DNA from: a virus
Taxonomy: Duplodnaviria; Caudoviricetes
Length of the DNA: 64,000 bases
IMG/VR virus record: IMGVR_UViG_3300014204_000113
Span: 64,001-128,000 of that record
Strand: one strand, 5' to 3'
Position numbers and translations under genes: made by a program. The notes beneath the pieces were generated by a model. It was not told the DNA's origin, searched no databases, and saw only the letters and a list, made by a program, of their open reading frames with translations. Of this stretch, positions 4,927 to 63,141 are shown in pieces. Within the stretch, counting starts at the first letter, position 1. Each line of letters starts with the position of its first letter.

Positions 4927-4991
4927 GGTGAGGTAAGGTAAGGTTTGGTACGGTTAGGTTGGGTGGGGTAAGGTAGGGTGTGGTATGGTAA
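4927..4991 (+). ncRNA. GGT-NN pentamer array A1 (13 units), putative guide RNA
   Basis: NN = GA AA AA TT AC TA TG GG AA AG GT AT AA; perfect 5-nt period; followed by a 12-bp hairpin. Confidence 0.85.
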
Positions 4992-4993
4992 GG

Positions 4994-14355: not shown

Positions 14356-14431
14356 GCGGGAATAGCTCAATTGGTAGAGCGCAGACCTTCCCGGTCTGAG
14401 GTTGAGTGTTCAAACCACTCTCCCTGCTCCA
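14356..14431 (+). tRNA. tRNA-Gly(TCC), atypical
   Basis: cloverleaf GCGGGAA...TCCCTGC-T-CCA; anticodon stem CAGAC/GTCTG, loop CT-TCC-CG; T-arm GAGTG-TTCAAAC-CACTC. Confidence 0.8.
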
Positions 14432-15296: not shown

Positions 15297-15839
15297 GTGA
15301 TGGAAAACGATTATGCTAAAGATATTTTTATTGATGAAAACGATCTTGTAGGTGAGTGGTTGGATCACGGAAATAGAGTTTATCATTATAATAAACTTTC
15401 TGCCAACGCCAATGATGAACGCGATAGGGCTAAAGAAAAATTAAGTGTTGTTGAATCGGAACTACTACTCAAAGTGAAAAGTGATCCTGAAAAATTTATT
15501 CCAAATATTGCTATTAATAAGATAAGCGAAGCTACATATTCTGCTTGGATAAAAACACAACCGGAATATAAAGAAGCATTGGAAGATTATCTTAAGAAAA
15601 AACACAATAGCAGCATCTTGGGCGGGGCAGTAAACGTTTTTGATTCACATAGAAAATACGCCTTGAGCAACCTTGTCAATATGTTGCTTGCGGGATTTTT
15701 TTCTGTTCCAAGAGTGAAAGATGAATTCAAGAAAGAGGTTGAAGAAGATTGCAGAAAGGTTCAACTTGAAGGACTAAAAGATATGGGACCACAACTAAAA
15801 ACATTGAAAAGGAAGAAGAGAGATGCAGGAGCAAATTAA
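15297..15839 (+). CDS. UvsY-like recombination mediator (putative)
   Basis: helical protein with IDE..L..E pattern located upstream of SSB and RecA. Confidence 0.5.
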   Translation: MMENDYAKDIFIDENDLVGEWLDHGNRVYHYNKLSANANDERDRAKEKLSVVESELLLKVKSDPEKFIPNIAINKISEATYSAWIKTQPEYKEALEDYLKKKHNSSILGGAVNVFDSHRKYALSNLVNMLLAGFFSVPRVKDEFKKEVEEDCRKVQLEGLKDMGPQLKTLKRKKRDAGAN

Positions 15840-17373: not shown

Positions 17374-17402
17374 TTGACAAATTTTGGGAAAAATTCTACA
17401 AT
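17374..17402 (+). promoter_or_regulatory. sigma70-type promoter upstream of recA
   Basis: TTGACA-17-TACAAT. Confidence 0.7.
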
Positions 17403-17482: not shown

Positions 17483-18586
17483 ATGGAGTTTATAATGCCA
17501 CCAAGAAAGAAAACAGATGATGTTGTAAATCAAATCAAAGAAGTTGCAAATAGTCCTGTGAGAAAAGATGATGAACGAGTTGAGTTTTTGAACAGTGGTT
17601 CAACTTTATTAAATTTAGCTGCTTCACAAAAAGGTAAAGATGGTGGATGGGCGCGAGGGAGAGTAATTAATTTGGTTGGTGATTCTAGTTCTGGGAAAAG
17701 CGCCCTTGCATTAGAAGTTTGTGCTCAAAGTCTTTACAATATTAAAAATATAGAATCTAAAATATATCCAAAACCTCAAAAGGTTTCAATAGTTTACAAC
17801 AATGTTGAAGGCGTAATGGATTTTCCAATTTCACAAATGTTCGGTGAGAAATTTAATAATGAAATCGAATGGATACAAACACCAACTTGTGAAGGTTTTG
17901 GTAAAGATTATCAACAAAGAGTCCGTAATTTAAAATCTGGAGAATTTCTTTTATATATTTTAGATTCAATTGATGCTTTAACAACAGAAGCTTCTTCAGA
18001 AAGAATGGATCAACTTTTAACCGATAAAAAAGTTGGTGGTTCTTATGGTTTAGAAAAACCAAAATTTTTTTCAAGTGAATTTTTCAATCATTTATGTGGA
18101 ATAATGAAAGGAAAAGATTCAACACTAGTTTGTATCAGTCAAGTTAGACAAAATATTGGCATAATGTTTGGGGAAAAACTTACAAGAACTGGTGGGAAAG
18201 CTCTAGATTTTTATGCACATCAAGTTTGTTGGTTGGCAACCATTGAAAAAATGAAGAAAACTTTTCGTAATCAAGATAGAATTTATGGAGTAAAAATAAG
18301 AGCACGTTTTAAAAAAAATAAAACAGCAATACCTTATAGAGAATGTGATTTTAGTATTATTTTCAATTTTGGAATTGATGATGTCAATTCAATGTTAGAT
18401 TTTTGTTTTGGTCCAAAAAGCAAGGAAATGACTTGGAATGACCAAGAAATGAAACGAGGAGATTTAGTAGAATTAATTGACAACTCAAAGGAGGATTATT
18501 TACTGCTACAAGAACTGACTGAAAAAATTTGGCATGAAATAGAGGAGGGAATAAAACCACGAAGAAAAAACAGGTTTATTGATTGA
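17483..18586 (+). CDS. recA: RecA/UvsX-like recombinase
   Basis: GDSSSGKS Walker A, LDSIDAL, ISQVR, GGKALDFYA, KNK. Confidence 0.9.
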   Translation: MEFIMPPRKKTDDVVNQIKEVANSPVRKDDERVEFLNSGSTLLNLAASQKGKDGGWARGRVINLVGDSSSGKSALALEVCAQSLYNIKNIESKIYPKPQKVSIVYNNVEGVMDFPISQMFGEKFNNEIEWIQTPTCEGFGKDYQQRVRNLKSGEFLLYILDSIDALTTEASSERMDQLLTDKKVGGSYGLEKPKFFSSEFFNHLCGIMKGKDSTLVCISQVRQNIGIMFGEKLTRTGGKALDFYAHQVCWLATIEKMKKTFRNQDRIYGVKIRARFKKNKTAIPYRECDFSIIFNFGIDDVNSMLDFCFGPKSKEMTWNDQEMKRGDLVELIDNSKEDYLLLQELTEKIWHEIEEGIKPRRKNRFID

Positions 18587-18706
18587 GGTTAGGTTTGGTT
18601 AGGTGGGGTCCGGTAAGGTGAGGTAAGGTGAGGTGTGATGAGGTTGGGTAAGGTGGGGTGAGGTAAGGTATGGTAAGGTACGGTATGGTAGGCTAGGGTG
18701 AGGTAT
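18587..18706 (+). ncRNA. GGT-NN pentamer array A2 (24 units), putative guide RNA
   Basis: starts at the base after the recA stop; NN = TA TT TA GG CC AA GA AA GA GT GA TG AA GG GA AA AT AA AC AT AG AG GA AT. Confidence 0.88.
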
Positions 18707-18711
18707 GGATT

Positions 18712-19026
18712 TTGCGACTTAAATTTGAAAGTTGTTTTGAAACTCAATTTCGGGAAGAACTTGAAAGTCGTGGATTCATAAAGAATAAAGATTTCATACA
18801 AGAATTTCCAGTTCGGTATCCAACCCGAATAATCGACTTTGTATTTTATGACAAAAAGGTTGGTGTTGAATTGGATGGTCCACATCACATTGGTAAGAAA
18901 AAGTATGTTGACAAGTGGAAAGATGAAAAAGCAATAAAACAAGGATGGGTTATTGTAAGATTTGATTTGGAGCAAATGAAAGATATCAAGAATTGTGTTG
19001 ATATGGCTTTAAGTTTGATTAAATGA
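18712..19026 (+). CDS. DUF559/Vsr-like PD-(D/E)XK endonuclease
   Basis: E...QEFPV...IIDF...VELDGPHH...D..KD.....GW.IVRF; TTG start with GAGGT RBS inside the array. Confidence 0.8.
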   Translation: MRLKFESCFETQFREELESRGFIKNKDFIQEFPVRYPTRIIDFVFYDKKVGVELDGPHHIGKKKYVDKWKDEKAIKQGWVIVRFDLEQMKDIKNCVDMALSLIK

Positions 19027-19033
19027 ATTTTAT

Positions 19034-19093
19034 GGTGCGGTTGGGTCTGGTGTGGTACGGTTTGGTCAGGTATGGTCAGGTAGGGTAAGGTAT
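19034..19093 (+). ncRNA. GGT-NN pentamer array A3 (12 units)
   Basis: NN = GC TG CT GT AC TT CA AT CA AG AA AT; directly upstream of the RAMP-like gene. Confidence 0.85.
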
Positions 19094-19122
19094 GGGTTTT
19101 TCTATACTCAAATTAAAACAAG

Positions 19123-19653
19123 ATGGAGAAACAAATCATGGAGTTGACAAGAATTAAAGTAACAGTTCATGGAACAAAACCTCTTTTGGTGCATCGTTTT
19201 GCGGAAGAAGAAAGCGGCAAATCCAGGAAGAAAGCAACTGAGGATTCAAAAACGCAGGCAGAAAAGGCTCTTTACACAAATGCAGATGGACCTTATGCAC
19301 CATCTTCTTGGTTTGAAGGAGCTATGGTTAAAGCCGGTGTAAATTTCTCGTTGCGCGGCAAGAAAACTTACAAAGATTTGGTTAAAAGTGCGGTTGTGGT
19401 GACACCAGAAGAAATTCCTCTACGCAACGAATGGGAAGTAGATTCTCGTCCTGTTGTGATTAGCGGCAGGATTATGCGCCATCGTCCTAAATTTAAAGAA
19501 TGGTCGGCAGAATTCACAGTTGAAATTACAGACCCGCAATTACCAGCAAATGTCTTGCAAGACATTTTGAAAGATGCAGGACAATATTGTGGCGTGGGTG
19601 ACTACAGACCCAAGTTTGGTACTTTTGAAATTGTTGAATTTAAAGAAATTTAA
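19123..19653 (+). CDS. stand-alone RAMP/Cas7-like protein, paralog 1 (GGT arrays)
   Basis: VHGTKPLL, PSS, DSRPVV...RIMRHRPKF..W, C-terminal G-loop AG..CGVGDYRPKFGTF. Confidence 0.8.
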   Translation: MEKQIMELTRIKVTVHGTKPLLVHRFAEEESGKSRKKATEDSKTQAEKALYTNADGPYAPSSWFEGAMVKAGVNFSLRGKKTYKDLVKSAVVVTPEEIPLRNEWEVDSRPVVISGRIMRHRPKFKEWSAEFTVEITDPQLPANVLQDILKDAGQYCGVGDYRPKFGTFEIVEFKEI

Positions 19654-19690
19654 TTGATAATTTATGTAGCAATAAAATTTAATTATTCTA

Positions 19691-19987
19691 TTGCTACATA
19701 AAAACAAGGTGGGCAGATTAATGTACAAAATATACAAATACCCGTTTGAAATCAAAGATGAATTCATCATTGAGATGCCTTATGATTCAAAGATTCTCAA
19801 CGCCTTTTGCCAAAATGATATTCCTTGTATGTGGGCATTAGTTAATCCACAAAGAAAATTACAAAAACGTAAATTCACCATTATAGGTACAGGGCATCCA
19901 ATTGAAGAAACTTACAATTTAGAACATATTTCAACTTTTTCACAATCTGATGGCAAATTCATCTGGCACCTTTTTGAGATAGTCTAA
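19691..19987 (+). CDS. phage hypothetical protein
   Basis: IYKYP...WALVNP...GTGH...WHLFE pattern; likely start ATG 19721. Confidence 0.6.
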   Translation: MLHKNKVGRLMYKIYKYPFEIKDEFIIEMPYDSKILNAFCQNDIPCMWALVNPQRKLQKRKFTIIGTGHPIEETYNLEHISTFSQSDGKFIWHLFEIV

Positions 19988-20394: not shown

Positions 20395-20934
20395 ATGGAT
20401 TACGAATATTATTTTTCGATGTGCGACAAAGTAGCGGAAAAAAGCAAATGTTTCAGTCGTAAAATTGGTGTTCTTGTAATGACACCAGACCTTAGTATTA
20501 TAAATACAGCGTATAATGGCCCAGCACGAAAAGTAAGTCATTGTGATAGTCAAGAACGATTACAATGGCTTGAAAAACAATTGAAAGATACCCATGTTGG
20601 AGCGGTAGATTTATATTTATTGGACAATGGCTATGGAACAAAGTGTCCTCGTCAAATATTAAAATTTAAAAGTGGAGAAGGATTACATCTATGTCAGGCT
20701 GCACATGCGGAAAGAAATGCAATTGCAAACTGCGCTAGAGAAGGAATAAAAACAAAAAATAACTGGATGTTGATGAATTGTAGCCTTCCTTGTCAAGAAT
20801 GTTCCAAAGGAATTATTGGTGCAGGTTTTTCAAAAATAATATGTGTTGAAGGTGATGATTATGACAAAGGAAGCCGGTGGATTTTAGATCAAGCTGGAAT
20901 TGAAATAGTTCAAATAAAAAGACAAAAAATATAA
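20395..20934 (+). CDS. dCMP deaminase
   Basis: S.C..RKIG, YNG, HAERNAI, PCQEC. Confidence 0.88.
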   Translation: MDYEYYFSMCDKVAEKSKCFSRKIGVLVMTPDLSIINTAYNGPARKVSHCDSQERLQWLEKQLKDTHVGAVDLYLLDNGYGTKCPRQILKFKSGEGLHLCQAAHAERNAIANCAREGIKTKNNWMLMNCSLPCQECSKGIIGAGFSKIICVEGDDYDKGSRWILDQAGIEIVQIKRQKI

Positions 20935-22983: not shown

Positions 22984-23058
22984 AGCATGGTTAGGCGAGT
23001 CCGGGCGATGCTAGGTAGGGCATGGCCAGGCGGGTCTAGGTGTGGCAGGTTGTGGCGA
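22984..23058 (+). ncRNA. GGC-NN pentamer array B1 (15 units)
   Basis: NN = AT TA GA CG GA TA AG AT CA GG TA GT AG GT GA; triplet mostly GGC/GGT with variants. Confidence 0.85.
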
Positions 23059-23106
23059 GGATTTAAAAAACGAAAAATCTAACACAAATAAAAGGAGGAA
23101 CAACAA

Positions 23107-23661
23107 ATGAACTTGGTACTGTGTAAATACAAAATTACTGGCTTATTTCCACTTTTAACCCACAGTCCTGCTGGAATGAGGCAAGCGGCCAATGCGCCAA
23201 AAGTCAAGAAGATTCCATCGCCAGAAGATGAAGCACAAGCTGGTTTGTATATTGATAATGATGGAAATTATTGCATCCCGTCTATTGCTTTTCGTTCAGC
23301 TTTATTGAATGGATTGAAAGGGAAAAAGATTGGCAAGGTGGGTGCAATTTCAGTGTTTCAAGCTGCGGTTTTTAACGTGGACGAATTGAGTCCATTAGTT
23401 GACCCTGAAACTGGGCGAGCATTAAGGGAATATACGATCGACACTCGTAGAGCTATCGTGCAAAGACAAGGAATTTTAAGAAACCGTCCAAGATTTGAAA
23501 AATGGGGATGTAATGTTTTTCTTCAAATCGACTTGGAAATAACCACACCTGAGCAAGTAGAAGAAGCATTGAATACGGCTGGTCAAATCATTGGCGTGGG
23601 TGATTTCCGTATTGAAAAGAGAGGAATGTTCGGTAAGTTTCAAGCCGAATTGGTTGAATAA
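23107..23661 (+). CDS. stand-alone RAMP/Cas7-like protein, paralog 2 (GGC arrays)
   Basis: ITGLFPLL, IPS, DTRRAIV...ILRNRPRF..W, AG..IGVGDFR....GMFGKF. Confidence 0.8.
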   Translation: MNLVLCKYKITGLFPLLTHSPAGMRQAANAPKVKKIPSPEDEAQAGLYIDNDGNYCIPSIAFRSALLNGLKGKKIGKVGAISVFQAAVFNVDELSPLVDPETGRALREYTIDTRRAIVQRQGILRNRPRFEKWGCNVFLQIDLEITTPEQVEEALNTAGQIIGVGDFRIEKRGMFGKFQAELVE

Positions 23662-23679
23662 AAGATTTTAAAGATTTGT

Positions 23680-23744
23680 GGCAAGGCGAGGCTGGGCTAG
23701 GCGGGGCTAGGCGGGGCTAGGCGGGGCTAGGTATGTCAAGGCGA
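23680..23744 (+). ncRNA. GGC-NN pentamer array B2 (13 units)
   Basis: NN = AA GA TG TA GG TA GG TA GG TA AT AA GA; internal (GGCGGGGCTA)x3. Confidence 0.8.
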
Positions 23745-23789
23745 GGTTTGAAAAAGAAATTAAGAACAAGAAATATAATGATTTTTCGC

Positions 23790-23839
23790 GGCGGGGTGGG
23801 GCGATGCCCGGCCCGGCATGGTAAGGCAAGTTAAGGCGA
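23790..23839 (+). ncRNA. GGC-NN pentamer array B3 (10 units)
   Basis: NN = GG GG GA CC CC AT AA AA AA GA. Confidence 0.8.
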
Positions 23840-23870
23840 GGGTTTTCAAACAAAACAAAGGAGAATAAAT

Positions 23871-24548
23871 ATGCTAATCAAAGCAGCAGAATTGATTGAG
23901 GATTTCAGTTTATATCCACGTTCCCAAGTGGACACAACACATGTAAGAAATATTGCAGAAGCAATGATGGCAGGAGAAAAATTTCCGTCTATCATCATTG
24001 ATGAACAAAATAGGATTATTGATGGCTTCCATCGGAAAAGAGCTACATTGAGGGTTTTTGGAGATGAGGCTGATATTGAAGTAGAAGTTCGACAATATGT
24101 TAACGATAAAGAAAGATTTCTTGATGCTTTGAGATATAATTCAAGACACGGTAAGGGAATAACTGGAGTTGAACAGACAGGAGCTATTTTGAAGGCTCAA
24201 GGTTTCAAGATTGACCCTAAATTTATCGCTTCTGCTTTGGGAATCAGCCAAGAAAGAGTCAAAGAAATCGTGCAATGTAAAGTCGGGAACATTCGCCAAG
24301 GTACGACTGCTCATGGAGACCCAGTTCCTCTAAAACGCTCTATGCAGCATTTTGCTGGGAAAGAAATGACTGTTGAGCAAGTTAAGGTGAATGATATGGC
24401 TCCCGGCACGCCACAATCTCTTCTTATCAATCAACTTATCGGATTTATTGAAAGCGGTAGTTTACAACTGGAAAATGAAAAGATTGTTAATGGACTCATC
24501 CATTTGAAGGAACTTTTAAATGGATTGGTTTTGGAAAAAGCGGTTTGA
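23871..24548 (+). CDS. ParB/Srx N-terminal domain protein inside the GGC module
   Basis: YPR, FPSIII, IIDGFHRKRA, N..HG, followed by a possible HTH (IASALGIS). Confidence 0.75.
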   Translation: MLIKAAELIEDFSLYPRSQVDTTHVRNIAEAMMAGEKFPSIIIDEQNRIIDGFHRKRATLRVFGDEADIEVEVRQYVNDKERFLDALRYNSRHGKGITGVEQTGAILKAQGFKIDPKFIASALGISQERVKEIVQCKVGNIRQGTTAHGDPVPLKRSMQHFAGKEMTVEQVKVNDMAPGTPQSLLINQLIGFIESGSLQLENEKIVNGLIHLKELLNGLVLEKAV

Positions 24549-24563
24549 AATAATTAAAGATTT

Positions 24564-24623
24564 GGCTCGGCTTGGTTGGGCGCGGCTAGGCTATGCGCGG
24601 CTTTGCGTGGCAGGGCAAGGCGT
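24564..24623 (+). ncRNA. GGC-NN pentamer array B4 (12 units)
   Basis: NN = TC TT TG GC TA TA GC TT GT AG AA GT. Confidence 0.8.
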
Positions 24624-25565: not shown

Positions 25566-25652
25566 ATCGGTGTGGCGGAATGGTAAAGGCAATAGATTGC
25601 TAATCTATCTGGTGTCAAAGCCGCGAAGGTTCGAATCCTTCACTTACCACCA
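25566..25652 (+). tRNA. degenerate tRNA-Ser(GCT)-like (possible pseudo-tRNA)
   Basis: ATAGA-TTGCTAA-TCTAT anticodon arm, long variable arm, GAAGG-TTCGAAT-CCTTC, CCA; acceptor stem pairs poorly. Confidence 0.6.
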
Positions 25653-25663
25653 TTTTAAAATGT

Positions 25664-25739
25664 GGACTCGTAATTCAGTTGGTAGAAGCCTCAACTCATA
25701 ATTGAGTAGTCTCCCGTTCGAGCCGGGACGAGTCCACCA
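25664..25739 (+). tRNA. tRNA with CAT anticodon (elongator Met or Ile2)
   Basis: GGACTCG/CGAGTCC acceptor, CTCAA-CTCATAA-TTGAG, TCCCG-TTCGAGC-CGGGA, ACCA. Confidence 0.88.
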
Positions 25740-52343: not shown

Positions 52344-52413
52344 GGTCCGGTATGGTTTGGTGAGGTATGGTGAGGTGCGGTAAGGTGAGGTCAGGTTTGG
52401 TGGGGTAAGGTAT
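52344..52413 (+). ncRNA. GGT-NN pentamer array A5 (14 units)
   Basis: NN = CC AT TT GA AT GA GC AA GA CA TT GG AA AT; same leader and tail as A3. Confidence 0.85.
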
Positions 52414-52445
52414 GGGTTTCAACTATCTTCAAAGTTTTGCTTTTT

Positions 52446-52520
52446 GGTATGGTCAGGTATGGTTAGGTAAGGTATGGTACGGTTCGGCGGGGTTTGGTTC
52501 GGTAAGGTAAGGTATGGTAA
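52446..52520 (+). ncRNA. GGT-NN pentamer array A6 (15 units)
   Basis: NN = AT CA AT TA AA AT AC TC GG TT TC AA AA AT AA. Confidence 0.88.
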
Positions 52521-52522
52521 GG

Positions 52523-52549
52523 TAGATGGGAGAGTCTATCTCCCATCTA
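52523..52549 (+). terminator. 11-bp hairpin closing array A6
   Basis: TAGATGGGAGA-GTCTA-TCTCCCATCTA. Confidence 0.7.
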
Positions 52550-62528: not shown

Positions 62529-62574
62529 GGGGATTCTGTATTGAATCCAAAATAAATTTAAGGAGAATTAAATA

Positions 62575-63141
62575 ATGAAAATTAAAGTTACAATTCAAGG
62601 AACAGTTCCAATTTTATTTAATCGTTTTGCAGAAGAGAATGAAGTTAAAGTTGCTTCTGGAATTAATCCAGTTCAAGGAGGACAAAGAGGAACGCCTAGA
62701 GAACAAGCAGAAAAGAAACTATATCAAGACGTGGATGGGAATTTGTTTCTTCCAAGTCCTATGTTATTTTCTTGTTTAGTAGATGCTGGTAAATTCCATA
62801 AAGTGGGAAGAAATAAAGTTACGACTCAGAAGACTTCTTTAGTTCCTGCCGGTATATCTGTTGAAGAATTAATCATTCCGTTTAATACTAAAGATTGGGA
62901 AATTGATTCTAGAAGCGTTGTGATACCATCTACTGGTGGTAGAATCATGTGTCACAGACCCCGGCTTGATGAGTGGCAATTAACTTTCACTTTGGATGTT
63001 GATACAACAATGTTTGATCCTAAGTTTGTTAGGACTCTTATGGATGATGCAGGCAAGAAATGTGGCTTGGGTGATTATAGACCTAATCGTAAAGGGCCAT
63101 TTGGTAAATTTGTTGTGATTAATTGGGAAGAAGAAAAATAA
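62575..63141 (+). CDS. stand-alone RAMP/Cas7-like protein, paralog 3 (TGT array)
   Basis: IQGTVPIL, LPS, DSRSVVI...RIMCHRPRL..W, AG..CGLGDYRP..KGPFGKF. Confidence 0.8.
   Translation: MKIKVTIQGTVPILFNRFAEENEVKVASGINPVQGGQRGTPREQAEKKLYQDVDGNLFLPSPMLFSCLVDAGKFHKVGRNKVTTQKTSLVPAGISVEELIIPFNTKDWEIDSRSVVIPSTGGRIMCHRPRLDEWQLTFTLDVDTTMFDPKFVRTLMDDAGKKCGLGDYRPNRKGPFGKFVVINWEEEK

Follow-up and report, generated by a model that had tools for sequence, protein, structure and literature searches.

VIPR systems, a kind known since April 2026, combine a small RAMP protein (Vipr) with vrRNAs made of GGY/NN repeats (bioRxiv 10.64898/2026.04.26.720920, 10.64898/2026.04.26.720927). The NN dinucleotides pair with double-stranded DNA, and one base, usually the codon wobble base, is skipped between successive dinucleotides (bioRxiv 10.64898/2026.04.26.720920). 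In the VIPR preprints (2026), natural targets were called at ≥80% NN identity with self hits below that level, the mechanism demonstrated for the SUSP1 VIPR is silencing, and the targets reported to date are satellites, prophage regulators and rival VIPR genes. In SUSP1-family phages, solo vrRNAs target the vipr genes and vrRNAs of relatives and are about 90% wobble-aligned (bioRxiv 10.64898/2026.10.15.759431). Here we describe a further VIPR locus in a 64,000-nt stretch of Caudoviricetes DNA (the window; positions 64,001 to 128,000 of IMG/VR record IMGVR_UViG_3300014204_000113), part of a 187,988-bp phage genome whose source metagenomes come from landfill and groundwater. Its array A2, directly behind the resident recA-like gene, spells almost exactly a segment of recA from another phage lineage and matches the resident recA less well. 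Coordinates are those of the window unless marked as genome coordinates.

The locus shares with the SUSP1 type II VIPR a stand-alone RAMP protein, GGY/NN pentamers and a one-nucleotide skip that falls on the wobble base; it is likewise phage-borne, apparently aimed at another mobile element, and has a self score below 80%. Several features set it apart. The apparent target is a related phage's core recombination gene instead of a satellite or a prophage regulator, and the guide lies in the 3' untranslated region of the phage's own orthologue of that gene. The tail of A2 consists of five repeat-like units, whereas the SUSP1-clade tail is a pseudoknot; the neighbouring gene is a DUF559 gene here and the DNA-binding vap1 there; and three Vipr paralogues and at least 12 arrays are distributed over 188 kb in this phage. 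The solo vrRNAs of SUSP1-family phages are comparable in that a phage acts against a related phage with a self score below the rival score, read there as autoimmunity avoidance. They hit rival VIPR machinery, whereas A2 would address the rival's allele of the guide-adjacent gene, and here the guide and a resistant allele are inherited as one module. The features that carry this comparison are as follows.

17483..18586, + strand: resident recA-like recombinase gene, 367 aa (Pfam RecA, E 1.2e-26)
18401..18457, + strand: self near-target, resident recA codons 307-325 (NN match to the A2 guide)
18587..18706, + strand: A2, GGT/NN array (24 pentamers)
18587..18681, + strand: guide part of A2, 19 GGT/NN units with GAT in unit 11 (foreign recA match)
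18682..18713, + strand: 3' tail of A2, units 20-24 (AT, AG, GCT-AG, GA, AT) and then GGATTTT (array-end comparison)

A2 keeps a strict register without insertions or deletions, with GGT in 22 of its 24 pentamers, GAT in unit 11 and GCT in unit 22, and it starts at 18587, directly after the recA stop codon TGA (18584-18586). The block formed by units 20-24 recurs almost unchanged at the end of another array (genome 167543-167630), and because it is common to both arrays we regard it as a constant tail and not as guide. The last GAGGT of this tail doubles as the predicted ribosome-binding site for a TTG start at 18712. The preliminary description had read A2 as a string of dinucleotides standing for the first two positions of successive codons; its string is identical to ours, and its decoding scheme is the published one-nucleotide-skip rule of VIPR (bioRxiv 10.64898/2026.04.26.720920).

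The foreign match of A2 is nearly perfect. In an alignment of 120 RecA homologues, residues 307-325 of the protein P0004 are YFYGPKEKEVEWNGEQIKT, which is the near-exact peptide spelled by A2; over their whole length, P0004 and the resident RecA share 63% identity. P0004-type recA DNA occurs on 10 contigs from several samples, five of which were fetched. The NN of A2 agree with this DNA at 30/30 positions over units 1-15, 35/36 over units 1-18, 37/38 (97%) over units 1-19, 38/40 over units 1-20 and 39/48 (81%) over all 24 units. The footprint lies on the sense strand, starts with codon position 1 of the orthologous codon 307 and skips the wobble base. Shuffled A2 guides reached maxima of 24/30 and 28/38 over 3.3 Mb of fetched DNA, and exact searches of IMG/VR with units 1-15 and of JGI metagenomes with units 4-15 returned the P0004 lineage only. 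Among 80 IMG/VR recA loci retrieved with an alignment query and scored against units 1-20, the next best after the P0004 lineage reached 32/40 and the resident allele 25/40. No better-matching allele, one agreeing with units 8-19 and carrying AA at unit 16, came up in an exact metagenome search. The preliminary description had proposed that A2 preserves a genuine recA allele other than the phage's own, to be sought among phage recA genes; the P0004 lineage is this natural match, at 35/36 over the 18 units considered there. The guide thus lies well above the ≥80% level used for VIPR targets (97%), and its best self match lies below it (66%).

The match to the phage's own recA carries less weight. 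The earlier count of nine exact, seven half and two mismatched units between 18 NN and codon positions 1 and 2 of 18401-18454 (25/36) is reproduced, and this site, 186 nt 5' of A2, is the top-scoring of the window's 127,894 positions, both strands included (runner-up 24, at 50467). The permutation test that had been proposed for the window leaves this match borderline, as the maximum reached ≥25 in 5.75% of 2000 shuffles of NN order. Extending the comparison adds little: the self match is 25/38 (66%) over 19 units, 25/40 over 20 and 26/48 over 24, with only 1/12 in units 19-24. A total-match score ranks the self match first, whereas a local score with a harsh mismatch penalty does not. Own and target recA share 72% identity at codon positions 1 and 2, and the self match by itself is suggestive and non-decisive, at a level equal to ordinary orthologous recA similarity. 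We take the match to the foreign allele, rather than the self match, as the decisive signal for A2.

Mismatches to the self allele fall at 13 of the 38 read positions and in 10 of the 19 guide units, and the own allele is presumably left unbound and spared by them (66% against the 80% criterion). We further compared the resident's similarity to its eight closest homologues with the similarity among those homologues. This ratio is ~1.0 elsewhere in the gene and drops to its minimum, 0.68–0.70, at resident RecA residues 286-330, the stretch that contains the footprint. The extra divergence, a single observation, is compatible with selection favouring mismatches to the guide, or to the guides of rivals.

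The protein partner is encoded in the same cassette, and two paralogues lie further along the window.

19123..19653, + strand: vipr1, 176-aa Vipr, a stand-alone RAMP (phmmer to PDB 36pp)
23095-23661, + strand: vipr2 (PDB SUSP1 Vipr, E 6.5e-6)
62572..63135, + strand: vipr3, third Vipr paralogue (PDB SUSP1 Vipr, E 1.2e-6)

The vipr1 gene starts 440 nt 3' of A2. Residues 32-170 of its product match PDB 36pp, 'SUSP1 Vipr protein' (phmmer E 1.9e-14), with the conserved G-loop GVGDYRPKFG aligned to GVGDWRPRFG, and its 84 homologues are without Pfam families. PADLOC assigned no family to the three Vipr proteins or to the DUF559 protein. On the strength of the array anatomy and the homology of vipr1 to SUSP1 Vipr, we identify A2 as a vrRNA of a VIPR system. 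The two paralogues are 37% and 30% identical to vipr1, and the fixed triplet is GGT near vipr1 and mostly GGC near vipr2, which suggests three parallel guide/protein pairings within one genome.

Between and around recA, A2 and vipr1, the cassette contains the following elements.

17374..17402, + strand: sigma-70-like promoter, TTGACA-17 nt-TACAAT (11/12 matches)
18712..19026, + strand: DUF559 gene (Vsr-like endonuclease fold), 104 aa, TTG start (Pfam DUF559, E 4.5e-8)
19034..19098, + strand: A3, GGT/NN array, 12 units and a GGG end, just 5' of vipr1
19664..19699, + strand: perfect 11-bp stem-loop 3' of vipr1 (read from the sequence)
19701..19721, + strand: older recA 3'-end remnant, K-T-R-W-A-D-stop (comparison with G001)

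The order is recA, A2, DUF559 gene, A3 and vipr1, and tblastn finds one recA copy in the 188-kb genome. The promoter at 17374-17402, 5' of recA, is the sole strong promoter-like site, and a terminator scan of the + strand found no terminator-like site before 19800, the stem-loop at 19664-19699 not being called. Given this sole promoter and the absence of a terminator-like site before the stem-loop, A2 is probably part of the recA transcript. A single transcript from the 17374 promoter probably covers recA, A2, the DUF559 gene, A3 and vipr1, with the stem-loop as its probable end. For the DUF559 protein, a sequence search found no solved homologue. Its gene, which is a candidate accessory (vap-like) gene linked through position alone, lies between two arrays both here and in the related loci L211 and L212 described below, and is not adjacent to more distant Vipr homologues.

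Comparison with G001, a 189.6-kb relative, shows how this cassette is placed. The leader 5' of recA is ~95% identical between the two genomes through 17482 and is followed by complete divergence at the recA start; the proteins of the flanking genes are 82–100% identical and RecA 62%. In G001 the recA stop overlaps the start of a DUF7352 gene without a cassette, whereas here 1.1 kb is inserted between the two. The remnant at 19701-19721 overlaps the ATG of the DUF7352 gene as TAATG, in just the way that the G001 recA end (K-P-R-W-T-D-stop) does. From the leader and flank identity, the diverged RecA and the remnant, it follows that recA and the cassette form one swapped module that replaced an older recA and left its last codons behind. 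None of the 80 recA loci carries an array within 3 kb of recA. Like a homing cassette, the insert is present here and missing from G001 at one fixed intergenic position flanked by conserved genes. The guide and the recA allele are co-inherited. In two further samples recA and A2 are unchanged, and the same two samples contain a variant strain in which 161 other letters replace 32 bases at 19031-19064 (A3) and the DUF559 and vipr genes are ~93% identical. The guide array 5' of vipr differs among strains, while recA and A2 stay constant in the same samples.

The same neighbourhood in G001 (L129 5497-8000) has the shared leader and then a 219-aa weakly Vipr-like gene (tblastn E 8e-6 to vipr3), whose protein has no PDB match by sequence. 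Between this gene and recA lies ~1.1 kb of non-coding, G-rich DNA in which GGCAGG motifs recur, and the two together may represent a different VIPR type. Because G001 carries this other Vipr-like gene and G-rich DNA there, the recA neighbourhood appears to be a hotspot for such cassettes. Two further genes, a dCMP deaminase (20395-20934, 60%) and a 180-aa gene (15297-15839, 59%), are far more diverged from G001 than their neighbours (82–100%) and may be further swapped alleles.

We consider it probable, at about 85%, that A2 is a vrRNA directing Vipr1 to P0004-type recA while the resident allele escapes by its 13 mismatches. The A2 RNA would be made together with recA from the 17374 promoter and processed, and a Vipr1 filament would bind and coat it along the GGT triplets. 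This filament would display the 19 NN dinucleotides for pairing with double-stranded DNA, each third base being skipped, and the sequence so specified would be codon positions 1 and 2 of codons 307-325 in the P0004-lineage recA. Synonymous changes could not hide such a target, because the guide reads codon positions 1 and 2. If both phages occupied one cell, binding by the complex would fall on the rival's recA and presumably leave the phage's own copy alone. By analogy with the SUSP1 VIPR, the outcome would be a block of transcription, possibly with cutting if the DUF559 protein joins the complex.

Several points weigh against this interpretation. A self identity of 66% may be incompletely silent. 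RNA datasets with the locus were looked for and none were listed. At 19 guide and five tail units, A2 is longer than the 9–16 repeats of the SUSP1 and P. fulva clades. The interpretation also assumes that the attacker and a P0004-type phage share a host or a sample. Finally, RecA made by the attacker could stand in for a silenced rival recA by complementation in trans, so it is uncertain what pure silencing would gain.

A related locus presents the same arrangement. In L211 and L212 the order is recA, array, DUF559 gene, array and vipr, with a Vipr 74% identical to that of vipr1, and a 17-codon recA-end remnant (DWAEIEAAVVPERKKRW-stop) lies directly 3' of vipr. Across the fetched loci, the first guide of L211 (12 units without the tail) matches the antisense strand of the conserved recA RTGGKALDFY motif with ≥20/24 at 32 sites, where 0.01 are expected, and the recA of L211 itself (HRVGGKSLDFY) scores 17/24. 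The arrays of L211 and L212 at the same locus differ in their NN and keep a constant tail. Judging by these scores, we read L211 as a second, independent case of a recA-adjacent guide with a weaker self score. Array 1 of L211 scores 20/24 (83%) against the antisense RTGGKALDFY motif of the recA in our window (17483-18586), and the phage studied here could be a possible target of this relative.

Other arrays of this genome also resemble the genes next to them. We compared, for 12 arrays, the best local match under the NN-plus-skipped-base pattern (NNx) within 600 nt with that in equal-sized windows genome-wide. The arrays of the 64-kb window outside the recA cassette are listed here.

4927..4993, + strand: A1, GGT/NN array, 13 units (pattern scan, same system)
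22989..24621, + strand: second VIPR locus (vipr2 with GGC-rich arrays)
22989-23056, 23680-23747, 23790-23837 and 24564-24621, + strand: GGC-rich arrays of the vipr2 locus (pattern scan)
48664..48766, + strand: A4, solo GGT/NN array, 20 units (pattern scan)
52344..52523, + strand: A5 and A6, GGT/NN arrays, 14 and 16 units (pattern scan)

For A4, A6 and the array at genome position 167543, the genome-wide best NNx match lies next door, the fraction of windows with an equally good match being 0.007 each; for A2 and an array D this fraction is ~0.04. The close matches of these five of the 12 arrays are all wobble-aligned and all in neighbouring genes. A4 has its best match in the last 20 codons of the gene immediately 5' (48598-48657, 28/40), and it is kept in G001, with one unit fewer and the same self allele alongside; the best match of A6 is antisense in the next gene, 290 nt 3'. 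In the array at genome 167543-167630 (− strand, window coordinate ~103543), units 1-12 match the first codons of a gene 25 nt 3' with 20/24 (83%). This is at the published target threshold, and a self-regulating guide or a very recent allele difference are both possible there. An exact IMG/VR search with the cores of A4 and array 167543 gave no match, and the 1.64 Mb of fetched loci contain no convincing target for arrays other than A2, A3 included.

These adjacent matches bear on the most durable alternative, in which the module attacks recA copies without the cassette and repair or selection then spreads the linked resistant allele and the cassette. It leaves the identity of A2 unchanged and departs from the silencing of a rival in its outcome, namely action in cis on DNA and spread of the cassette. 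T-even phages carry free-standing homing endonuclease genes (seg, mob). The cassette resembles these in being present or absent between conserved genes, with a nuclease-fold gene inside, a target in the neighbouring conserved gene of cassette-less relatives and an own allele diverged at the site. Recognition here would be RNA-guided through Vipr instead of residing in the nuclease, and cleavage and conversion are hypothetical in this phage. The complementation of a silenced recA by the attacker's RecA (a matter of reasoning), the short distance of the target to the cassette (130–190 bp) and the DUF559 endonuclease-fold gene within the cassette in both lineages make a cis effect with allele exclusion or conversion a serious alternative. 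In the same direction point the absence of the cassette from the syntenic G001 and 80 other recA loci, the swapped island of recA and cassette with its mosaic recA allele (leader ~95%, flanks 82–100%, recA 62%), the older recA-end remnant at the right junction in two lineages, and the five of 12 arrays with an unusually good NNx match at <600 nt, three of them genome-wide best.

The evidence on the other side keeps this alternative, in our judgement, on the unlikely side. Published phage VIPRs are silencers, with nucleases reported in host-borne types only, and what ties DUF559 to the system is its position alone. The P0004 target phage has no synteny with this phage directly 3' of recA, so the right-hand homology for a clean conversion is missing, and no P0004-type genome with the cassette was found. 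Linkage of the guide with the resistant allele is moreover expected without any drive, as any recombinant in which the guide came to lie with a sensitive allele would be damaging to itself.

A wider form of the idea, in which each guide of this phage group adjoins a resistant self allele of the gene attacked in relatives and so forms an RNA-guided allele-exclusion or homing system, is tentative at best. Equally speculative is its extension, in which binding or cutting of the rival allele would let the recA module spread by recombination, with A4, A6 and array 167543 as minimal selfish versions served by Vipr in trans. Alternatively, the adjacency of guide and self allele could have been left behind by the process that generates new vrRNA guides.

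It is improbable that A2 is an inactive relic or serves only the Vipr of another element, as a decoy or solo vrRNA of the kind seen in SUSP1 satellites. Solo vrRNAs that redirect a foreign Vipr are known, but an intact vipr lies in the same cassette, recA and A2 are identical in two further samples, and so close an agreement with an allele that still exists speaks for ongoing selection. Even less credence is due to self-regulation, by which A2 would weakly bind its own recA and tune the expression of recA or of the downstream cassette. The best match in the window is indeed the own recA, 186 nt 5' of the array; however, its 66% identity is below the 80% target level at which published sets hold no self hits, a far better foreign match exists, and the own allele is extra-diverged at the footprint, the opposite of what self-regulation predicts. 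Chance resemblance of an A/G-rich NN string to recA after many positions and readings were searched would suit the weak self match (window shuffle p ~0.06 before correction for the choice of array, length and reading), but it is refuted by the score of 37/38 at orthologous codons against a shuffled maximum of 28/38 in 3.3 Mb and by a decoded peptide that is a real RecA segment.

With A2 read as a vrRNA against P0004-type recA, the phage provides a clean natural VIPR guide with a nameable target, a related phage's core recombination gene. Five features of the locus are absent from the texts of the VIPR preprints: the target can be named as a core gene of a related phage; the guide occupies the 3' untranslated region of the self orthologue; guide, Vipr and resistant allele are inherited together as a module whose junction bears a remnant; the neighbouring gene encodes a DUF559 protein, a family that the main text does not mention; and the guide is long. 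Guide, Vipr and the resistant allele of the target gene are co-inherited, and several other guides in the genome adjoin a self version of their apparent target. If this linkage is general, it would amount to a population-genetic rule by which guides stay linked to the resistant allele in freely recombining genomes, or else to an RNA-guided form of homing. Either way, the locus offers a tangible case in which to study the acquisition and spread of vrRNA guides, a point left open by the preprints.

The arrays themselves form a consistent class. The GGT/NN pattern has 85 matches in the window against 0.06 expected; the window holds six GGT-type and several GGC-rich arrays, every one on the + strand, and the whole genome at least 12 arrays scattered over 188 kb. 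The NN differ from array to array and from strain to strain (L211 against L212; the A3 variant), and the GGT-type arrays share the ending GGTATGG, after which comes G or a T-run. A 17-mer, TTGATTAAATGAATTTT, occurs directly 5' of both A3 and A5 (19017-19033, 52327-52343) and could act in some vrRNAs as a common 5' leader or as a signal for processing. An Rfam scan returned no family at the arrays. Other identities, namely TRAP-like RNA-binding sites, arrays of Shine-Dalgarno-like sites, two-tetrad G-quadruplexes and clusters of primase or Chi sites, were dropped, as the 5-nt period is explained by the Vipr homology and the VIPR preprints.

Class 1 CRISPR-Cas, with its Cas7 backbone on a CRISPR RNA, offers a more distant likeness, in that a RAMP-fold protein polymerises on a guide and the base pairing is broken periodically. 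In contrast to those systems, there is no repeat-spacer array here, and the guide is non-contiguous, with two of five bases read and a target period of 3 nt. Tandem and pattern scans at the locus found arrays of 5-nt period only and no CRISPR repeat-spacer array (24–48 nt repeats); five Pfam scans near the locus found no cas1, cas2 or other cas family, and no systematic cas search was made of the window.

Elsewhere in the window, Rfam identifies three tRNA genes (14356-14428, 25569-25649 and 25664-25736) and a HEARO RNA at 44601-44822 on the + strand (136 bits, E 3.9e-28). The latter lies directly 5' of an open reading frame at about 44844-46079 whose G001 homologue carries RRXRR and HNH domains, and RNA and reading frame together look like an IscB-type OMEGA system in the same phage.

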